This document shows, piece after piece, positions 16,429 through 24,695 of a stretch of 27,104 bases of DNA; within the stretch, counting starts at the first letter, position 1; the number at the start of each line of letters is the position of its first letter. A program made the position numbers and the translations under genes. This DNA comes from Escherichia coli. Its GTDB lineage: Bacteria; Pseudomonadota; Gammaproteobacteria; Enterobacterales; Enterobacteriaceae. The stretch lies in the NCBI RefSeq assembly GCF_003334385.1, contig NZ_QOWN01000059.1; one strand, given 5' to 3'. A model generated the notes under the pieces. The model was not told the DNA's origin and did not search any database. It worked only from the letters and a program-made list of their open reading frames with translations.

Positions 16429-18162
16429 TTAAAGCGAGCGGATCCCATAGGATTCAATGTGGTCAGACAGCGTGTCTTCTTTCTCGTACAGCATGGCTCT
16501 GCCAACCGCCATAATCAGCGCAACTGCACCATCGATTTTGTTTTCCGCCTGCTCTTTGACGGGCTTCACCACATCATCGTTACCCGGAATGGTTTTGCCG
16601 ACCACGTTGCCGATACACCAGGTCATGATGGGATTGCCATCATGATGAAAGCGCCCCGATTCAATTGCCGCTTCCAGCTCTTTCATCGGGTCGGACATGT
16701 TGGTGTAGTTCTGAATGATGGTGACGGGGTTCAGGTCTTCATCAGCAAGGTCATGTGAGAGCCCGGTCGCCCCGAAGGGGTCGATGGGTGACTCGCTGAC
16801 CGGGCTGATTTTGTTCGCCGCTTTGGCCTCTTCGAGGATGTAGCGATAATCCACCTCTGCACCATCGGTAACGGTCAGGACGCCCATTTCCACCCATTTC
16901 TGAAAGCGTTCGGCTGTCCGTCGATCTTCATTTTTCTCGACGCTGTACACCGTGTCATACGGTACCCAGAAACGCGGGGCCACACTGTAGTAATGCGTTT
17001 TACCGTCAATCTCGCGGGTATAAAGTCGCGCCATGCTGTTCATATCCAGCTTACGCGCCAGGTCAAAGGCCAGAATGCACGGCTGCCCCTCGAACTGCTC
17101 AAGGGTCAGTGATTTATCCTCGCAGCTCTGCCAGCTTACCAGGTTGAAATACGCCGAACGCGCCGACACCCAGATATTGAGGTGTTTTGTTTTAAAGACG
17201 TTTGCCAGACGGGCGTTATTTTTCGCACGCTGCTGCTGACTTAACAAAAATTCGCGATAAACCGACACGCCAATATTTGGATTGGCTTTTTCCAGCACCT
17301 GCGGGTCGGTCCAGTCGTCACCTTCATCAACGGTATAGATGATCCCGAACAGTTCATCGTTGGGTACCGAACCGTTGAGCATCTCGATGACTTCCCGCCG
17401 TTTGTCGTAGCACGGCCCCTCAATGTTGTACCCGGCGGTAGTGATAGCCCACATCAGTGGCTGACGTCGCGCCCCCATCCCGGTAAGCATCGTGGTGTAA
17501 AGCGCATCTGTGGCGTGCTCGTGATATTCATCCACCACCGCACAGTGGGGTGATGAACCATCACCAGGGTTACCGATCAGCGGTTCAAAACGCGCACCAT
17601 CCTCCGGACGGTTCATGTTTGAGGCGTTAACCTCAATCCCGAACGCTTCCGTCAGCATGGGTGTGCGTTTACACATCAGTCGTGCCGGACGAAAGACTTC
17701 CCACGCCTGTTTCTCCGTCGTGGCACCGGAATACACTTCCGCGCCAAACTCGTTATCACAGGCAAAACAATACAGGGCAACACCGGCAGAGATTGCCGAT
17801 TTGCCGTTCTTACGGGGGATTTCGGTATACACCTCCCGGAAGCGGCGCAATCGGGAGCCTTTATTGACCCAGCCAAACGCACAGCAGATCACAAATAGCT
17901 GCCACGGCTCCAGCGTGATGGGCATCCGTTTAAATGCCCACTCACCCTTGGTGTGCGGCAACAGCTGAATAAATTTGGCGGCCCGTTCAGCCAGGTCCTT
18001 GTCGAAGCGGTAACGAAACGACTTACTTTTTTCCGCCATCAGGTCATCAAGATGGCGCTGGCAGGCCTGAATCACAAACTGGCAGGCCACAATCTTTCCG
18101 CGCACGACATCACGGGCATACTGATTGGCAGCATTTACGTTGGGGTAAGATTTCCGGCTCAT
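16429..18162 (-). CDS. Terminase large subunit
   Basis: 577-aa ORF with ATPase and nuclease character, flanked by small terminase and portal genes. Confidence 0.9.
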
Positions 18163-18662
18163 GATTCGATGATTTTCAGAAACGGGTTAGTGGCTTTCTT
18201 CTGCCCCGCCAGGCCAATCAGACGCTGGCGGCTGCTGGGGTCGAGTCCGAGCATTGCCCCCGTGCTGCTCATCTCGGACTCCTGTTCTTTCTTGGCGGTC
18301 AGCTCCGGATTTTTGACCATGCCGCCCATTGCACCGGTGATGGTGTTGCCCTGTCTGGCAATATTTTTCACGGCACGTCGCCAGAACTCATAGGCCACGC
18401 ACCACCGCTCAAGCACTGCGAGGTCAGTCACGCACAGCAGGCCCTGACCGCAGAGTTCTTTGGTTGTCAGTTGCCACATGATCGTGGCGAGAGGAAGCTC
18501 TTCTTCAGCGAACCACTCCGGTGGCTCAACACCTTTGATGGGCGTAAAAACAGGTTCATCTTTGTTCAGGGCTCGCTTGCCGGGGTTTCCGGCCAGCGCC
18601 TTGCGCGCCGTTGGCTTAGGGCGACGCCCGGAACGCCCCGCCGTTCCAGCCATATGCGGCAC
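18159..18662 (-). CDS. Terminase small subunit (P27-family-like)
   Basis: 167-aa ORF with a basic N-terminus ([27 protein letters not shown]), overlapping the large terminase start. Confidence 0.7.
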
Positions 18663-18778: not shown

Positions 18779-19129
18779 TCACTTTAGCCGTTCACGGGCC
18801 GTCTTCGCCTTATGGCACGGCCAGCACAGGCTCTGCAGATTGCTGTCGGCATCTGTGCCGCCATGCGCTTTAGGGATGATGTGGTCAACGGTTTTCGCCT
18901 CACGTACCACACCAGCACGCAGACATAACTGACACAGGCCTTTGTCACGTTGCAGCACACGCACACGGATAACATCCCACTTAGAACCATAACCGCGCTG
19001 ATGACGGGACTGACCTGGCTTGTATTGCTTCCAGCCTTCGCTTTTGTGGCTTTCGCAATAGCCTGACGAGTCAGTGGTGGTATGGCGGCAGCCGCGAACG
19101 CGGCAGGCTTTTGGGGTTCGTGGGGGCAT
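18779..19129 (-). CDS. HNH endonuclease (terminase-associated, HK97 gp74-like)
   Basis: 116-aa ORF with zinc-finger cysteines and the HNH core (CQLCLRAG...VDHIIPKAHGGTDADSNLQSLCWPCHKAK), immediately upstream of the terminase genes. Confidence 0.85.
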   Translation of the reverse strand: MPPRTPKACRVRGCRHTTTDSSGYCESHKSEGWKQYKPGQSRHQRGYGSKWDVIRVRVLQRDKGLCQLCLRAGVVREAKTVDHIIPKAHGGTDADSNLQSLCWPCHKAKTARERLK

Positions 19130-19207: not shown

Positions 19208-19897
19208 TTAAATCTTTGTTCGCTGATAATCAGCAGAATCAATTAAATTATACATACCATTCATATCATGCTCATAATGATATTCAGATTCATACGAATA
19301 CCCCAATATACTCTCATAAGTCAAAACGACCCGAAAATGTTCAGGCACATCTCCAGCATTTATTTTATTTTTAGGAAATTTAATTGCGCCATTGCTACTT
19401 CTAAAAAAATGCGAGCTATATTCCCCGATAGGAGGGTCAAAAGTTAAGCTTATATTTTTCGCTGTTTTACCATCACTAAATACCGACCAATTATACTCAT
19501 ACTGTTCACCACTTTTAACTGACCATCCCAGATTCAACATATATAGATCAGGCTTCGTTTCTTTTTCTCTTTCCAGCCTTTCTGTCATGGCTTTGATTGA
19601 TTCATTTTCTAATTGCTGTTTAGAAACGGAAACCATCTCTTTATATTGTTCGACTGAGTTTTTCAACTCAGTGGCTTGTAACTTTAACGCTTCAGTATTT
19701 TGCTGTAGTTCTTTTTGTTGCTGTAAATACCCAAGCACAAGCCAAAAAAAGGCCACTGGGGAAAATGCACCAGCAAGAAAATCTCCAAACTCATTCCACG
19801 ACGTCATCTGGTTCAAATCAAGAACATGGATCGTAATACCTAAGCCAAAGAAATAAACGACACTAACTAAAACACCGCACCCAAAAATTCTCATCAT
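19208..19897 (-). CDS. Hypothetical membrane protein with coiled coil (moron)
   Basis: Visibly AT-rich ORF with two hydrophobic helices at the N-terminus, a coiled-coil stretch (QQQKELQQNTEALKLQATELKNSVEQYKEMV...) and a Tyr/Glu-rich C-terminal domain. Start placed at the ATG preceded by GGGGAGAGA; the track ORF extends to 19921. Confidence 0.55.
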   Translation of the reverse strand: MMRIFGCGVLVSVVYFFGLGITIHVLDLNQMTSWNEFGDFLAGAFSPVAFFWLVLGYLQQQKELQQNTEALKLQATELKNSVEQYKEMVSVSKQQLENESIKAMTERLEREKETKPDLYMLNLGWSVKSGEQYEYNWSVFSDGKTAKNISLTFDPPIGEYSSHFFRSSNGAIKFPKNKINAGDVPEHFRVVLTYESILGYSYESEYHYEHDMNGMYNLIDSADYQRTKI

Positions 19898-19945
19898 TCT
19901 CTCCCCATTTGGAGAAAACATTTAACAACTGTCAAATAGTCAAGG

Positions 19946-20407
19946 TCAATGCAAACACTGCAACTTTACATACTCCTGCAAGTAGTTAACCTGCGCCGTT
20001 ATCTTGTCGATTCCACTTCGGAGACGGTAATAATTGAGTTCAGCATCTGCTGTAAGTCTTGGACTTTCTCCATCGCCCATGCCGCTGGCTCTGGTCGTTG
20101 ACTTTGCACAGGTGGCAGCGACTTGCAGGCGCTTACGCCCAGCAGAAACATCAGCACGGAGACTTTCGATAGTCGCGTTAGCATCAGCAAGCTCCTTTGT
20201 GTATCTGGCGTCAAGTTCTGCTACGTCACGTTGACGCTTCTGCATATCAGAGATGGTCGCCATAGCCGAATCTAATGCCATAGCATTCTCATCACGCTGC
20301 TTTTTGTATTCAATAGCTTTATTGTGGTAATGATTCACTGAACAGATAAAAGAACCAACGACAGAAACGAAGAAAACAGCGATAACCAGCTTATAGCTCA
20401 ACTTCAT
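19946..20407 (-). CDS. rz: Rz-type i-spanin
   Basis: 153-aa ORF with an N-terminal transmembrane helix and coiled coil, closely resembling lambda Rz (NHYHNKAIEYKKQRDENA...MQKRQRDVAELDARYTKELADA); overlaps the endolysin 3' end. Confidence 0.8.
   Translation of the reverse strand: MKLSYKLVIAVFFVSVVGSFICSVNHYHNKAIEYKKQRDENAMALDSAMATISDMQKRQRDVAELDARYTKELADANATIESLRADVSAGRKRLQVAATCAKSTTRASGMGDGESPRLTADAELNYYRLRSGIDKITAQVNYLQEYVKLQCLH
19999..20184 (-). CDS. rz1: Rz1-type o-spanin lipoprotein embedded in rz in the +1 frame
   Basis: Signal peptide with lipobox (MLTRLSKVSVLMFLLGVSAC) and a Pro-rich mature part, fully inside rz. Start chosen at the second Met; the track ORF extends to 20214. Confidence 0.7.
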   Translation of the reverse strand: MLTRLSKVSVLMFLLGVSACKSLPPVQSQRPEPAAWAMEKVQDLQQMLNSIITVSEVESTR

Positions 20408-20867
20408 TTACCACCCCACCAGCCTCTTTAAACCGGGCAATCAGGTCATCGATTTTATGTTCATACTGACCGTAACCCGCACCGGGTAACGACGCCCAGA
20501 TATTGCTGCAACGATCGATAGCCTGACGGATATCACCGCGATCAATCATCGGTAAAGCACCACGCTCTTTAATCTGCTGTAATGCCACTGAGTCCTGGCT
20601 TTTGGGAGAGAAGTCTTTCAGCCCAAGCTGCTTGCGGTAAGCATCCCACCAGCGTGAAAGAAGTTGATAACGGCCTGCAGCTGTTGATTTGAGTTTCGGG
20701 TTTAGCATGACAAGTTTACGAGGGTGATCGGAGTAATCAGTGAACAGTTCGCCACCGACAATAACATCATAACCATGATTTCTCGTTTTCTGCCGTCCGT
20801 TATCCGTTCCTTCTGACCATGCCACCATATCCAGGAAAGCTTTACGCTGGGAATTTAGTACCTGCAT
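20391..20867 (-). CDS. Endolysin, lambda R-type lytic transglycosylase
   Basis: 158-aa ORF nearly collinear with recalled lambda R (NSQRKAFLDMVAWSEGTDNGRQKTRNHGYDVIVGGELFTDYSDHPRKL...). Confidence 0.9.
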   Translation of the reverse strand: MQVLNSQRKAFLDMVAWSEGTDNGRQKTRNHGYDVIVGGELFTDYSDHPRKLVMLNPKLKSTAAGRYQLLSRWWDAYRKQLGLKDFSPKSQDSVALQQIKERGALPMIDRGDIRQAIDRCSNIWASLPGAGYGQYEHKIDDLIARFKEAGGVVNEVEL

Positions 20868-20870
20868 AAA

Positions 20871-21197
20871 TTACTCCTTAGAGCCACCAAACTTGTTACC
20901 GATTACTCTCATTGCAGCCCCACGAATAGCATCGACACCGATCAGCCCCACCCCACCACCAATGGCAACAGATAGTGATTTAGGCCATCCGACATACTCA
21001 AGAGCGGATGCAAAAGTCAGCGTCAGAGCACCACAGAGCAAAATCTCGAGCGTTTTTCGCTTCCAGCCACCACCACCGCCAAAATAGGCAATGCGCAAGC
21101 CAGCCATAACGATCGACATAATTACTGCGCCCAGCGGCGTGTCTCCACGCCACCAGCTCTGGACCAACTCCAGCCAGGTATTTGGGTTATGAGGCAT
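20871..21197 (-). CDS. Holin (putative)
   Basis: 108-aa hydrophobic protein with two to three predicted transmembrane segments, immediately upstream of the endolysin with a 4-nt gap. Confidence 0.6.
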   Translation of the reverse strand: MPHNPNTWLELVQSWWRGDTPLGAVIMSIVMAGLRIAYFGGGGGWKRKTLEILLCGALTLTFASALEYVGWPKSLSVAIGGGVGLIGVDAIRGAAMRVIGNKFGGSKE

Positions 21198-21337: not shown

Positions 21338-21371
21338 CCAGAAACGACAAAACCCGCTCAATGGCGGGTTT
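21338..21371 (-). terminator. Candidate tR'-type intrinsic terminator in the late leader
   Basis: On the minus strand: stem AAACCCGC, loop CAUUGA, stem GCGGGUUU, then UGUCGUUUC; about 70-100 nt downstream of the candidate late promoter and upstream of the holin. Confidence 0.4.
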
Positions 21372-21416: not shown

Positions 21417-21445
21417 TTGCGTACGCGTTAATAATTCTATATTAT
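21417..21445 (+). promoter_or_regulatory. Candidate sigma70 promoter of the ATPase-methyltransferase operon (TTGCGT-N17-TATTAT)
   Basis: Plus-strand hexamers at 21417-21422 and 21440-21445, about 30 nt upstream of the GTG start at 21476. Its -10 overlaps the -10 of the divergent late promoter. Confidence 0.35.
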
Positions 21446-21470
21446 ACAAGAAAAACAAGCTGGAAGACAA
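21441..21470 (-). promoter_or_regulatory. Candidate Q-dependent late promoter (pR'-like): TTGTCT-N18-TATAAT, with a second -10-like TAGAAT just downstream
   Basis: Minus-strand hexamers at 21465-21470 (-35) and 21441-21446 (-10), followed by an intrinsic terminator and then the lysis genes. Confidence 0.35.
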
Positions 21471-21475
21471 TTAAA

Positions 21476-23254
21476 GTGAGTGAAATCAGAAAGTTAAAAG
21501 GGCTAATGAATACAAATGCTATTGAGCCGTTCATTCGCCATATACGGTTTCCGTATTTTAAAAATCTTGAAGAATATAGCACTATACATTTTCACTATCC
21601 TATTACTGCATTAGTTGGTCAAAATGGAACCAATAAAAGCTCAGTATTACGTGCATTATATGGTTCTCCAAATAATTATTCCTTAGGAAATCTTTGGTTT
21701 TCAACTGATCTAGACGAGATTAAAGATGGTGGTCGTTCTAGATTTATTTATGGATACTATGATTCCGCATCTAAAGATGTTGTTGAAGTAATAAAAACAA
21801 GGATTGTAGACAAGGAGGATCCTGATTTATGGGAAACTTCGAGACCTCTAACTAAAGATGGTATGAAAAAAATACCAACAGATATTATTTCGCCAAATCA
21901 GCAAAAATCACGCTGGAAACAGATAGACAAAATTGTCACATATATTGATTTTAGAGCTTCGATCAGTGCATTCGATAAATTCTTTTATCATTCGGACTTT
22001 GATCTTTATCCAAAGAAAAATCACCTGAGAAAAAGAAGCCATCTTCTTAAAGAGATAATAGATAAAGGCCTAACATCATACAAGCCCTTTAAAGGTAAAA
22101 AAGAAAGGTTGTATAAGAATGAATTACTTTCTCAAGAGAAGGTAGAAATCATCAGCGATATACTTGGTAGACCTTACAAAACAATTAGACTTATTGAGCA
22201 TGCCTTATTTACAAACAATAAGGCTTCAACCGTTATTTTAGAGTCTCATAGTCTCAACTACTCCGAGGCTTTTGCAGGAAGTGGGGAGTTTGCAGTAACT
22301 ATTCTCGTAAATCAAATTGTTAACGCGCCAACAGCATCATTAATTCTTTTAGATGAACCCGAAGTCTCACTTCATCCAGCAGCACAGTTTAAATTGATGT
22401 CTTTTCTAAATAAGATTTGCTTAAAAAACAAACATCAAATTGTTATTTCAACACACTCATCATCTATAGTTAGCCAACTACCTAAGGAAGCCATAAAACT
22501 TTTTAATCTTAATTCAAACTCAGGAAAAGTTAGTATAGTTGAAAACGTTAGCCCTGAGGAAGCTTTCTTTACGCTTGGAGACCGACTATCAAAAAAAACT
22601 ATCTTTGTAGAAGATAAACTGGCTAAAAAATTCGTTGAGAAGGCTTTAAAATCAGGAGGTCCTGCCCTAGCCAATACATTTGATGTTATATATTGCCCAG
22701 CTGGTGCAAGCACATTATTAGGTAATATGATTGTCTCATTATTTTTATCAAGAGTTGATAATGCGGTATTTTTATTGGATGGTGATCAGAAGACAAGCCA
22801 TGATTTCATTACATCAGCCTTAATACCAAGCAGTGAAGATAATTCTTTAAATGAAAAAATAAAAAATATTCTTGGGTGTGAAATTAAAATACCAACTGAT
22901 GGGCATGGTGGAACTCCAAATAAACAGCAGAAGATTCAACTTCAGCGTGATTTCATTGATTTTTCATATAATTATGTAGGGTATTTACCTATCATTAATC
23001 CAGAAACTTTTTTGATTGACAATCTTCCGGCTTTTTACTCCGATATGATTAAAGATTTAAACTTATCAAAACTATCACCAAAATCAATAATTGCAGAAAT
23101 ATGTAAAAGAGACATAGAAAATAACGTTATAACTTCGGATGATATTTTCGCAACACAAATCAGGATACTAACCCGAATACCTGAGAATCATGTCGCATTT
23201 TCTGAAACGAGAGAAATGCTGAAATTTTTCCTTGAACATGGTAAGATAAGATAA
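21476..23254 (+). CDS. ABC-type ATPase with C-terminal TOPRIM-like nuclease domain (OLD/PARIS/Gabija-like architecture)
   Basis: 592-aa ORF. Walker A GQNGTNKSS (residues 48-56), Walker B LILLDEPE (289-296), H-loop ISTHS (324-328), then TOPRIM-like FVED (E379) and LLDGDQ (D435, D437). Visibly AT-rich. Start may be the GTG at 21476 or the ATG at 21506. Confidence 0.7.
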   Translation: MSEIRKLKGLMNTNAIEPFIRHIRFPYFKNLEEYSTIHFHYPITALVGQNGTNKSSVLRALYGSPNNYSLGNLWFSTDLDEIKDGGRSRFIYGYYDSASKDVVEVIKTRIVDKEDPDLWETSRPLTKDGMKKIPTDIISPNQQKSRWKQIDKIVTYIDFRASISAFDKFFYHSDFDLYPKKNHLRKRSHLLKEIIDKGLTSYKPFKGKKERLYKNELLSQEKVEIISDILGRPYKTIRLIEHALFTNNKASTVILESHSLNYSEAFAGSGEFAVTILVNQIVNAPTASLILLDEPEVSLHPAAQFKLMSFLNKICLKNKHQIVISTHSSSIVSQLPKEAIKLFNLNSNSGKVSIVENVSPEEAFFTLGDRLSKKTIFVEDKLAKKFVEKALKSGGPALANTFDVIYCPAGASTLLGNMIVSLFLSRVDNAVFLLDGDQKTSHDFITSALIPSSEDNSLNEKIKNILGCEIKIPTDGHGGTPNKQQKIQLQRDFIDFSYNYVGYLPIINPETFLIDNLPAFYSDMIKDLNLSKLSPKSIIAEICKRDIENNVITSDDIFATQIRILTRIPENHVAFSETREMLKFFLEHGKIR

Positions 23255-23280: not shown

Positions 23281-24315
23281 ATGAAGAAAAAAATCAAAGT
23301 TTTTGACTTCTTTTCAGGATGCGGGGGAACAAGCAAAGGCCTTAAAGAGGCTGGGTGCGAAATTTTCTTCGGTCTCGATTATGATTATGACTCTGGTCAA
23401 ACCTTTCAGGCAAATAATCCTGATGCTATATTTTTTAATGAGGATATACGCTCCGTTAAGTTAAATGATTTATTTCAGCTTGTAAAAAAAGCGAAGCAAG
23501 ACTCACATGTTTTGTTTTGTGGTTGTGCTCCATGTCAACCGTTCTCAAGGCAAAATAAAAATAAAAGCAAAGAAGATCCTCGAAGAGGATTATTAAACGA
23601 ATTTGGTCGTTTTATCGAGTACTATTGTCCTGATTATGTACTGATAGAAAATGTTCCAGGATTACAAAAAGTTGATATTAACGATGGACCATTGCATGAT
23701 TTTATAACTCTTCTGAAAAAGAAAGATTATAATTTAGCTTATGGTGTGATTCCCGCTTTATGGTACGGAGTGCCTCAAACCAGAGAGCGTTTTGTTCTTA
23801 TGGCCTCACTTCATTCCCCAATCCATCTACCAGAGCGCACGCATAATGGCGAAGATATCCCATTTGCGACGGTAAGAGATTGGATCGGAAATATACCACC
23901 AATTGAGGCAGGTGAATCACATCCTACATTACGAGATCATGTTAGTGCAAAACTCTCTGCTTTAAATCTTAAAAGAATTAAAGCAACGCCAGAGGGTAAA
24001 GGTCGAGAGTTTTGGCCTAAAGAGTTGTTACTTGAATGTCATAAAAACCATACAGGTCACAGCGATGTATATGGCCGATTAGCATGGGATAAACCTGCTA
24101 GTGGATTAACTACAAGATGCATTAGTTACTCTAACGGAAGATTTGGCCATCCTGAGCAACACCGGGCAATTTCTGTTCGCGAGGCTGCACTGCTACAAAC
24201 ATTTCCATTGGATTATATATTCATCGGTTCAATGCTTTCTAAAGCTAAACAAATTGGTAATGCAGTCCCACCTAAAATGGCGGAGTCTATAGGGCATGTT
24301 TTTATGAATATTTAG
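23281..24315 (+). CDS. DNA cytosine-5 methyltransferase
   Basis: 344-aa ORF with C5-methyltransferase motifs in order: FDFFSGCGG (motif I), GCAPCQPFS (catalytic Cys85), LIENVPG, QTRERF and QIGNAVPP. Starts 26 nt after the ATPase gene. Confidence 0.9.
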   Translation: MKKKIKVFDFFSGCGGTSKGLKEAGCEIFFGLDYDYDSGQTFQANNPDAIFFNEDIRSVKLNDLFQLVKKAKQDSHVLFCGCAPCQPFSRQNKNKSKEDPRRGLLNEFGRFIEYYCPDYVLIENVPGLQKVDINDGPLHDFITLLKKKDYNLAYGVIPALWYGVPQTRERFVLMASLHSPIHLPERTHNGEDIPFATVRDWIGNIPPIEAGESHPTLRDHVSAKLSALNLKRIKATPEGKGREFWPKELLLECHKNHTGHSDVYGRLAWDKPASGLTTRCISYSNGRFGHPEQHRAISVREAALLQTFPLDYIFIGSMLSKAKQIGNAVPPKMAESIGHVFMNI

Positions 24316-24338: not shown

Positions 24339-24695
24339 CTATAACATTGACATTACTCCCTCAACAAATCCCAAGGCGGATTGCAAATCCTTCCGGATAG
24401 TCCCGTCCGAACATTTCCGCTTCTTTGCAATTGTGCGGAGTGAAATACCTATAACAAAGTGAACAATGAGCAGCTCAAACTCATCTGGCTTATACTTTCG
24501 TAACCGAGCCACACAACTGTCTACCATAATACCTTCGTCATCATCACACTGAATCCGGGACTTTTTGCCATGAGGTAAAAGCCCCTTAAAGCCAGCGGCT
24601 ACCTGTTGCCAATCCACACCACTGTTTTCTGCCGCAGCCCATGCCCCCCAGCGGTCCAAAACTTCATACATATCACGCATCAACTTTCTCCACAA
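24339..24695 (-). CDS. Late gene antiterminator Q (QuuD/phage 82 type)
   Basis: 118-aa ORF resembling recalled E. coli QuuD (VLDRWGAWAA...AAGFKGLL...SRIQCDDDEGIMVDSCVARL...CSDGTIRKDL). Confidence 0.7.
   Translation of the reverse strand: MWRKLMRDMYEVLDRWGAWAAAENSGVDWQQVAAGFKGLLPHGKKSRIQCDDDEGIMVDSCVARLRKYKPDEFELLIVHFVIGISLRTIAKKRKCSDGTIRKDLQSALGFVEGVMSML

Follow-up and report, generated by a model that had tools for sequence, protein, structure and literature searches.

The window examined here, i.e., the whole stretch of 27,104 nucleotides that was analysed, is part of a lambdoid Escherichia coli prophage which combines an HK97/P27-like head with a Mu-like contractile tail. On its minus strand the holin, endolysin and Rz/Rz1 genes follow each other in what is almost certainly a standard lambdoid lysis cassette, with the following features:

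20871..21197, minus strand: holin of the lambda family, 108 aa, the first gene of the cassette (TIGR01594 holin_lambda, 121 bits against a cut-off of 55; PHROG 126)
20391..20867, minus strand: R-like endolysin, 158 aa, upstream of rz (PHROG 90, E=2e-63; RefSeq name 'glycoside hydrolase family 24 protein')
19946..20407, minus strand: rz, the 153-aa i-spanin or inner-membrane subunit (ATG-started ORF; PF03245; PHROG 13)
20336..20389, minus strand: rz codons 7-24, the hydrophobic N-terminal segment LVIAVFFVSVVGSFICSV (L7-V24), read from the translation
19999..20184, minus strand: rz1, 61-aa o-spanin prolipoprotein lying wholly inside rz, at Rz nt 224-409 of 462 (PF06085; PHROG 3198; HK75 Rz1)
20192..20197, minus strand: Shine-Dalgarno sequence AAGGAG of rz1, 7 nt upstream of ATG 20184 (read from the sequence; present in 57/57 relatives)
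20125..20184, minus strand: Rz1 signal peptide MLTRLSKVSVLMFLLGVSA and lipobox Cys20 (codon 20127-20125), with Lys at +2 (PROSITE PS51257)

All four lysis ORFs are intact, and rz has the location of a lysis-cassette gene, following the holin and endolysin genes with all of them on the minus strand. The first 17 nt of rz are shared with the 3' end of the endolysin gene, whereas the equivalent genes in lambda overlap by 4 nt. The GC content of the cassette is about 47-48%, and two AT-rich inserts flank it.

At the protein level, Rz matches the Pfam family PF03245 (Phage_lysis) over residues 30-151 with E=4.2e-38 and PHROG 13, 'Rz-like spanin', with E=3e-64; RefSeq names it simply 'lysis protein' (WP_000778471.1). 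It is 47% identical over 146 aa to lambda Rz, which is likewise 153 aa long, and the two align across both the CC1 and CC2 regions, with additional weak coiled-coil-type Pfam matches being recovered for residues 23-95. Both cysteines of the lambda protein are conserved, Cys100 aligning with lambda Cys99 and Cys151 with lambda Cys152. Further, the L7-V24 segment, which is presumed to be a signal-anchor transmembrane domain, aligns with the N-terminal TMD region of lambda Rz.

An earlier note on this DNA had claimed that an rz1 lipoprotein gene with an LLGVSAC lipobox is nested in the +1 frame of rz, and this claim is borne out by the Pfam and PHROG matches of the product, the position in the lysis cassette, its near-identity to HK75 Rz1 and the dual-coding footprint described below. 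The starts of rz and rz1, at 20407 and 20184, are 223 nt apart and, since 223 mod 3 = 1, the nested frame is +1. Its open stretch spans 20214 to 19999, the remaining off-frame being full of stops, and holds the string ...MFLLGVSAC..., in which the lipobox proper is V-S-A-C. The coordinates 19946-20407, under which the nested pair had been reported, are right for rz alone; rz1 itself extends over 19999-20184 and occupies 0.48-0.89 of the Rz length, which is consistent with the range of 0.4-0.5 L to 0.9-1 L published for about 70% of embedded o-spanins (PMC6139136).

The product read from ATG 20184 is MLTRLSKVSVLMFLLGVSAC followed by KSLPPVQSQRPEPAAWAMEKVQDLQQMLNSIITVSEVESTR, 61 aa in all. Its residues 20-58 cover the complete PF06085 model (positions 1-41 of 41; E=4.1e-19), with model position 1 falling on Cys20, and it also matches PHROG 3198 with E=2e-27. 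When the lipobox is defined as [LVI][ASTVI][GAS]C, accompanied by a basic n-region and a hydrophobic core, the predicted signal MLTRLSKVSVLMFLLGVSAC passes the PS51257 pattern together with the conditions on the position of the Cys and on the presence of K/R within the first 7 residues. Additionally, the residue at +2 is Lys, in keeping with the rule that lipoproteins sorted to the outer membrane have no Asp there. A database entry with exactly this Rz1 sequence already exists under the name 'Lipoprotein Rz1 precursor'. Judged from these sequence features, Rz and Rz1 very probably constitute an embedded two-component spanin pair of a lambda-like prophage. Several small ORFs on the plus strand, antisense to 19946-20407 (22-66 aa, mostly TTG-started), were considered as well and dropped, there being no evidence in their support.

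A nested frame of this kind could in principle be a non-coding by-product of Rz, i.e., a chance frame which happens to carry a chance lipobox. In randomised versions of rz, off-frame ATG-started ORFs of at least 50 aa are indeed common, arising in 30% of codon-order shuffles and 48% of synonymous recodings; however, such an ORF is coupled with a PROSITE-type lipoprotein signal in just 59 of 20,000 shuffles (0.3%) and 162 of 20,000 recodings (0.8%). Synonymous recoding is a poor control in this context, with 48% of the recodings keeping the ORF because much of the +1 frame is already determined by the amino-acid sequence of Rz. A codon-order shuffle was added to it, and the main reliance was placed on conservation and homology, the latter being far stronger evidence for rz1 than the shuffle and recoding figures.

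The relatives used for this purpose comprise 80 viral loci along with HK75, HK106 and lambda (83 loci); 57 distinct rz sequences were aligned. The arrangement AAGGAG-N7-ATG, followed by an intact lipoprotein ORF of 58-63 aa, is retained in 82 of the 83 loci, out to lambda. Among these 82 relatives the lipobox is VSAC in 78, VSGC in three and VVGC in one, the +2 residue is Lys in 77, five prolines are present in 76, and a single Cys in 80. Further, the entropy at the third codon positions of Rz, calculated over the 57 distinct sequences, drops to 0.17 bits within the overlap, compared with 0.54-0.70 bits upstream and 0.58 bits downstream of it. As these third positions are the second positions of Rz1, their low entropy is the expected signature of selection acting on both frames. 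This specific constraint inside the overlap, together with the PF06085 match (E=4e-19) and the persistence of ORF, lipobox, Shine-Dalgarno sequence and ATG across the relatives, leaves the chance-ORF reading with next to no probability, and it can be regarded as effectively refuted.

The start of rz1 had been described as ambiguous between three in-frame Met codons, at 20214, 20184 and 20151. Inspection of the sequence shows that only the latter two are ATG, and the two candidates other than 20184 can be described thus:

20212..20214, minus strand: TTG, the earlier 'Met 20214'; no Shine-Dalgarno sequence; TCG in 42/57 distinct relatives
20149..20151, minus strand: internal ATG, Met12 of Rz1, in the h-region of the signal peptide; no Shine-Dalgarno sequence

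The rz1 start is ATG 20184, and the ambiguity is thereby resolved. All 57 distinct relatives keep the Shine-Dalgarno sequence and this ATG unchanged, as do lambda, HK75 and HK106 when the three are aligned with the window; the codon coincides with the annotated starts of both lambda Rz1 and HK75 Rz1, and the signal peptide obtained from it is 19 residues long, contains Arg4 and Lys7, and passes PS51257. It is very unlikely that Rz1 is made from another start, whether TTG 20214 (giving 71 aa) or ATG 20151 (giving 50 aa). No stop codon intervenes between 20214 and 20184, and PS51257 is in formal terms satisfied by the 71-aa form (Cys at 30, Arg7), but this TTG is neither preceded by a Shine-Dalgarno sequence nor retained in most relatives. 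ATG 20151 is kept in 56/57 relatives, a conservation that is attributable to the constraint which both frames place on it; however, it too is without a Shine-Dalgarno sequence, and its 8-residue uncharged leader fails PS51257. Against both stands the perfect Shine-Dalgarno sequence at 7 nt from ATG 20184, with a start shared with the annotated lambda and HK75 genes. ATG 20151 is not plausible as an export-competent start. By analogy with dual-start holin/antiholin genes, it might be envisaged as a second start producing a non-exported, non-lipidated cytoplasmic isoform of 50 aa that modulates spanin action or lysis timing or, more broadly, the Pro-poor, Cys-less, helical Rz1 of the HK97 type might be imagined to possess a fusion motif mechanistically unlike the proline-rich region of lambda; this line of thought is highly improbable.

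The start at ATG 20184 is one of several features that place the window Rz1 among known o-spanins. The 'HK97' family of embedded o-spanins has been described with 32 members, including HK97, HK75, HK106, HK633 and P22 (Kongari et al. 2018, PMC6139136), and the HK97-family spanins compared here (HK97, HK75, HK106, HK633, mEpX2, P22) share with the window the Rz1 length of 61 aa, the start, the Shine-Dalgarno sequence and the VSAC lipobox. HK75 Rz1 (ADU77444, encoded by the equivalent 186-nt ORF) shows few differences from the window version (G16/V, L24/P, V41/A). Within this family the window Rz1 is a minor allele, with Leu in place of Pro at mature position 4: the KSLPP form is restricted to 4 loci and the window, most relatives having KSPPP. 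The pair in lambda, the prototype known from experimental work, has the same embedded +1 architecture, with the Shine-Dalgarno sequence and the start codon in identical positions, and lambda Rz1 is 39% identical to the window Rz1, including the AW.M and LN.II..SE motifs. However, mature lambda Rz1 contains 10 Pro in 40 residues and a penta-proline stretch, P32-P36, which is essential for its function (PMC5295617), whereas the mature window protein, with 4 Pro among its 42 residues, lacks such a stretch; its lipid Cys is its sole Cys, and there is no equivalent of lambda Cys29. On account of these differences, and of the similar state of its relatives, the Rz1 under consideration is HK97-type and not lambda-type, and its previous characterization as a Pro-rich peptide typical of Rz1 was an overstatement. 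Mature Rz1 is predicted to be largely helical, residues 33-59 forming a helix in a single-sequence AlphaFold model of Rz1 alone (moderate to low confidence, pLDDT 71) that was used as a helicity hint only; this predicted helical C-terminal half is in line with the helix content of 47% published for the HK97 o-spanin (PMC6139136). Beyond the embedded pairs, P2 LysB/LysC, T4 PseT.3/PseT.2 and the unimolecular T1 gp11 perform the same role of outer-membrane disruption by means of an inner-membrane anchor and an outer-membrane lipid anchor. In contrast to the fully embedded pair of the window, these overlapped, separated and unimolecular spanins (P2, T4, T1) have other gene architectures, and they display no sequence relationship to it.

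At the DNA level, megablast searches with the Rz/Rz1 locus recover HK106, HK633, HK97 and HK75 at 91-97% identity, and the extent of these matches reveals a mosaic junction inside rz near Rz nt 150 (window ~20257). In most HK97-like phages, among them HK97, HK75, mEpX1/2 and ECP1, the match is limited to Rz nt 151-437 (95-97%); for HK97 and HK75 this corresponds to the Rz1-containing two thirds of the gene. Matches beginning at Rz nt 11 are confined to HK106 and HK633, the HK106 gene being 91.8% identical to the window rz over 92% of its length. The N-terminal third of the window Rz is thus of the HK106/HK633 type and not of the HK97/HK75 type. It follows that Rz has exchanged its N-terminal TMD module separately from the C-terminal module, which contains Rz1.

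In functional terms, rz would encode a type II inner-membrane protein with a periplasmic coiled-coil domain, anchored by its N-terminal segment L7-V24, and rz1 would be translated independently from ATG 20184 by means of its own AAGGAG ribosome-binding site. By analogy with lambda, Rz1 would be exported, lipidated on Cys20 and cleaved by signal peptidase II, after which the Lol system would sort it to the outer membrane, a destination favored by the presence of Lys rather than Asp at +2. The C-terminal parts of Rz and Rz1 would then bind each other across the periplasm, as in lambda, and once the holin has acted and the endolysin has removed the peptidoglycan the complex would disrupt or fuse the outer membrane as the last step of lysis. 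The lipidation of Rz1, the formation of the complex and membrane fusion are all inferred from lambda genetics (PMC5295617, PMC6139136). The lambda spanins are functional only if a disulfide is present at Rz C152 or at Rz1 C29 (PMC5295617). Since the mature window Rz1 is without a periplasmic Cys, Rz Cys151, the equivalent of lambda C152, would be obligatory for covalent dimerisation. The Pro-poor mature Rz1, with neither the penta-proline stretch nor Cys29, also means that the mechanistic details from lambda may not be transferable one-to-one.

Intact genes could nevertheless be functionally dead cargo of a cryptic prophage, for example if they were not expressed or if the Pro->Leu substitution beside the lipid anchor had inactivated them. 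This is unlikely in view of several observations. The 2.2-kb stretch around rz is 99.9% identical to E. coli WP4-S18-ESBL-08 (NZ_AP022095), whose prophage adjoins a tRNA-Thr gene on the downstream side of proA, extends from the integrase gene to the tail-fibre genes and has a single frameshifted gene. Further, the four lysis ORFs have remained open and the identical Rz is found on 707 contigs. The minority status of the KSLPP allele is a point in favor of inactivation, but the substituted residue is in the linker region, outside the stretch that aligns with the proline-rich region of lambda. The placement of the late promoter is a second such point, in that a 2.9-kb insert on the opposite strand lies between Q and the holin gene and splits them, and the region upstream of the holin shows no meaningful homology to the annotated pR'/tR' of HK106 and HK75, so that the late promoter could not be located by comparison with them. 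Just upstream of the holin gene there is a promoter-like site, TTGTCT-18-TATAAT (10/12), at 21441-21470 on the minus strand, with a hairpin some 70 nt beyond it at 21350-21371 (minus strand). These could represent a pR'/tR' pair downstream of the defence island described below, although matches to promoter and terminator consensus sequences are no commoner than in shuffled sequence.

The surroundings of the cassette offer additional observations. Between the gene for the Q antiterminator (24339-24680, minus strand) and the holin gene is found an AT-rich island (31-41% GC) of two plus-strand genes:

21476-23254, plus strand: ABC/AAA_21-type ATPase, 592 aa, RefSeq 'ATP-dependent nuclease' (best PADLOC matches HEC-04, E=1e-34, and ATPase-Toprim_I-B, E=2e-27)
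23281-24315, plus strand: DNA cytosine methyltransferase (PHROG 116)

The ATPase additionally shows weaker PADLOC matches to PtuA, AriA, GajA and Old, and the island probably represents a cassette for anti-phage defence or methylation that is carried by the prophage. On the other side, directly downstream of rz and with no terminator in between, lies an AT-rich (36-38% GC) ORF of 237 aa (19208-19921, minus strand), for which RefSeq uses the start at 19897 to give 229 aa, and after which there is a terminator-like hairpin at 19165-19146. Its product is predicted to be a membrane and coiled-coil protein, with an N-terminal hydrophobic region and a coiled-coil-like middle, and belongs to PHROG 9267, 'unknown function'; searches of Pfam, NCBIfam and PADLOC returned no matches, and tblastn against phages only weak ones, to a fecal phage contig and an Agrobacterium phage. 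The ORF occupies the place taken by a GIY-YIG nuclease in HK106 and by bor in lambda; it resembles a moron and could encode a lysis-associated or exclusion protein. Further along the minus strand, an HNH endonuclease gene (18779-19129) is immediately upstream of that for the P27-family small terminase subunit (18159-18662), an order which is the usual packaging arrangement of HK97-type phages. A 117-aa alternative-frame ORF that overlaps the HNH ORF is probably spurious.

As the earlier note remarked, automated annotation easily overlooks nested genes, and this locus illustrates the point well. The RefSeq record of the 99.9%-identical genome, WP4-S18-ESBL-08 (NZ_AP022095, 20894-21355), has Rz annotated and no Rz1 feature, and those of HK106 and HK97 similarly list only Rz. 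The identical Rz has been called on 707 contigs as against only 4 for the identical Rz1, which shows that rz1 is systematically missed by gene callers. No NCBIfam model matches either Rz or Rz1, which probably accounts for both the generic name 'lysis protein' and the missing Rz1. The scientific weight of the pair is small: the embedded Rz/Rz1 arrangement was worked out years ago, and the pair described here is textbook biology, already known as an allele inside a catalogued family. Its value is for annotation, to which the 61-aa rz1 should be added at 19999-20184 on the minus strand, with ATG 20184 as its start.
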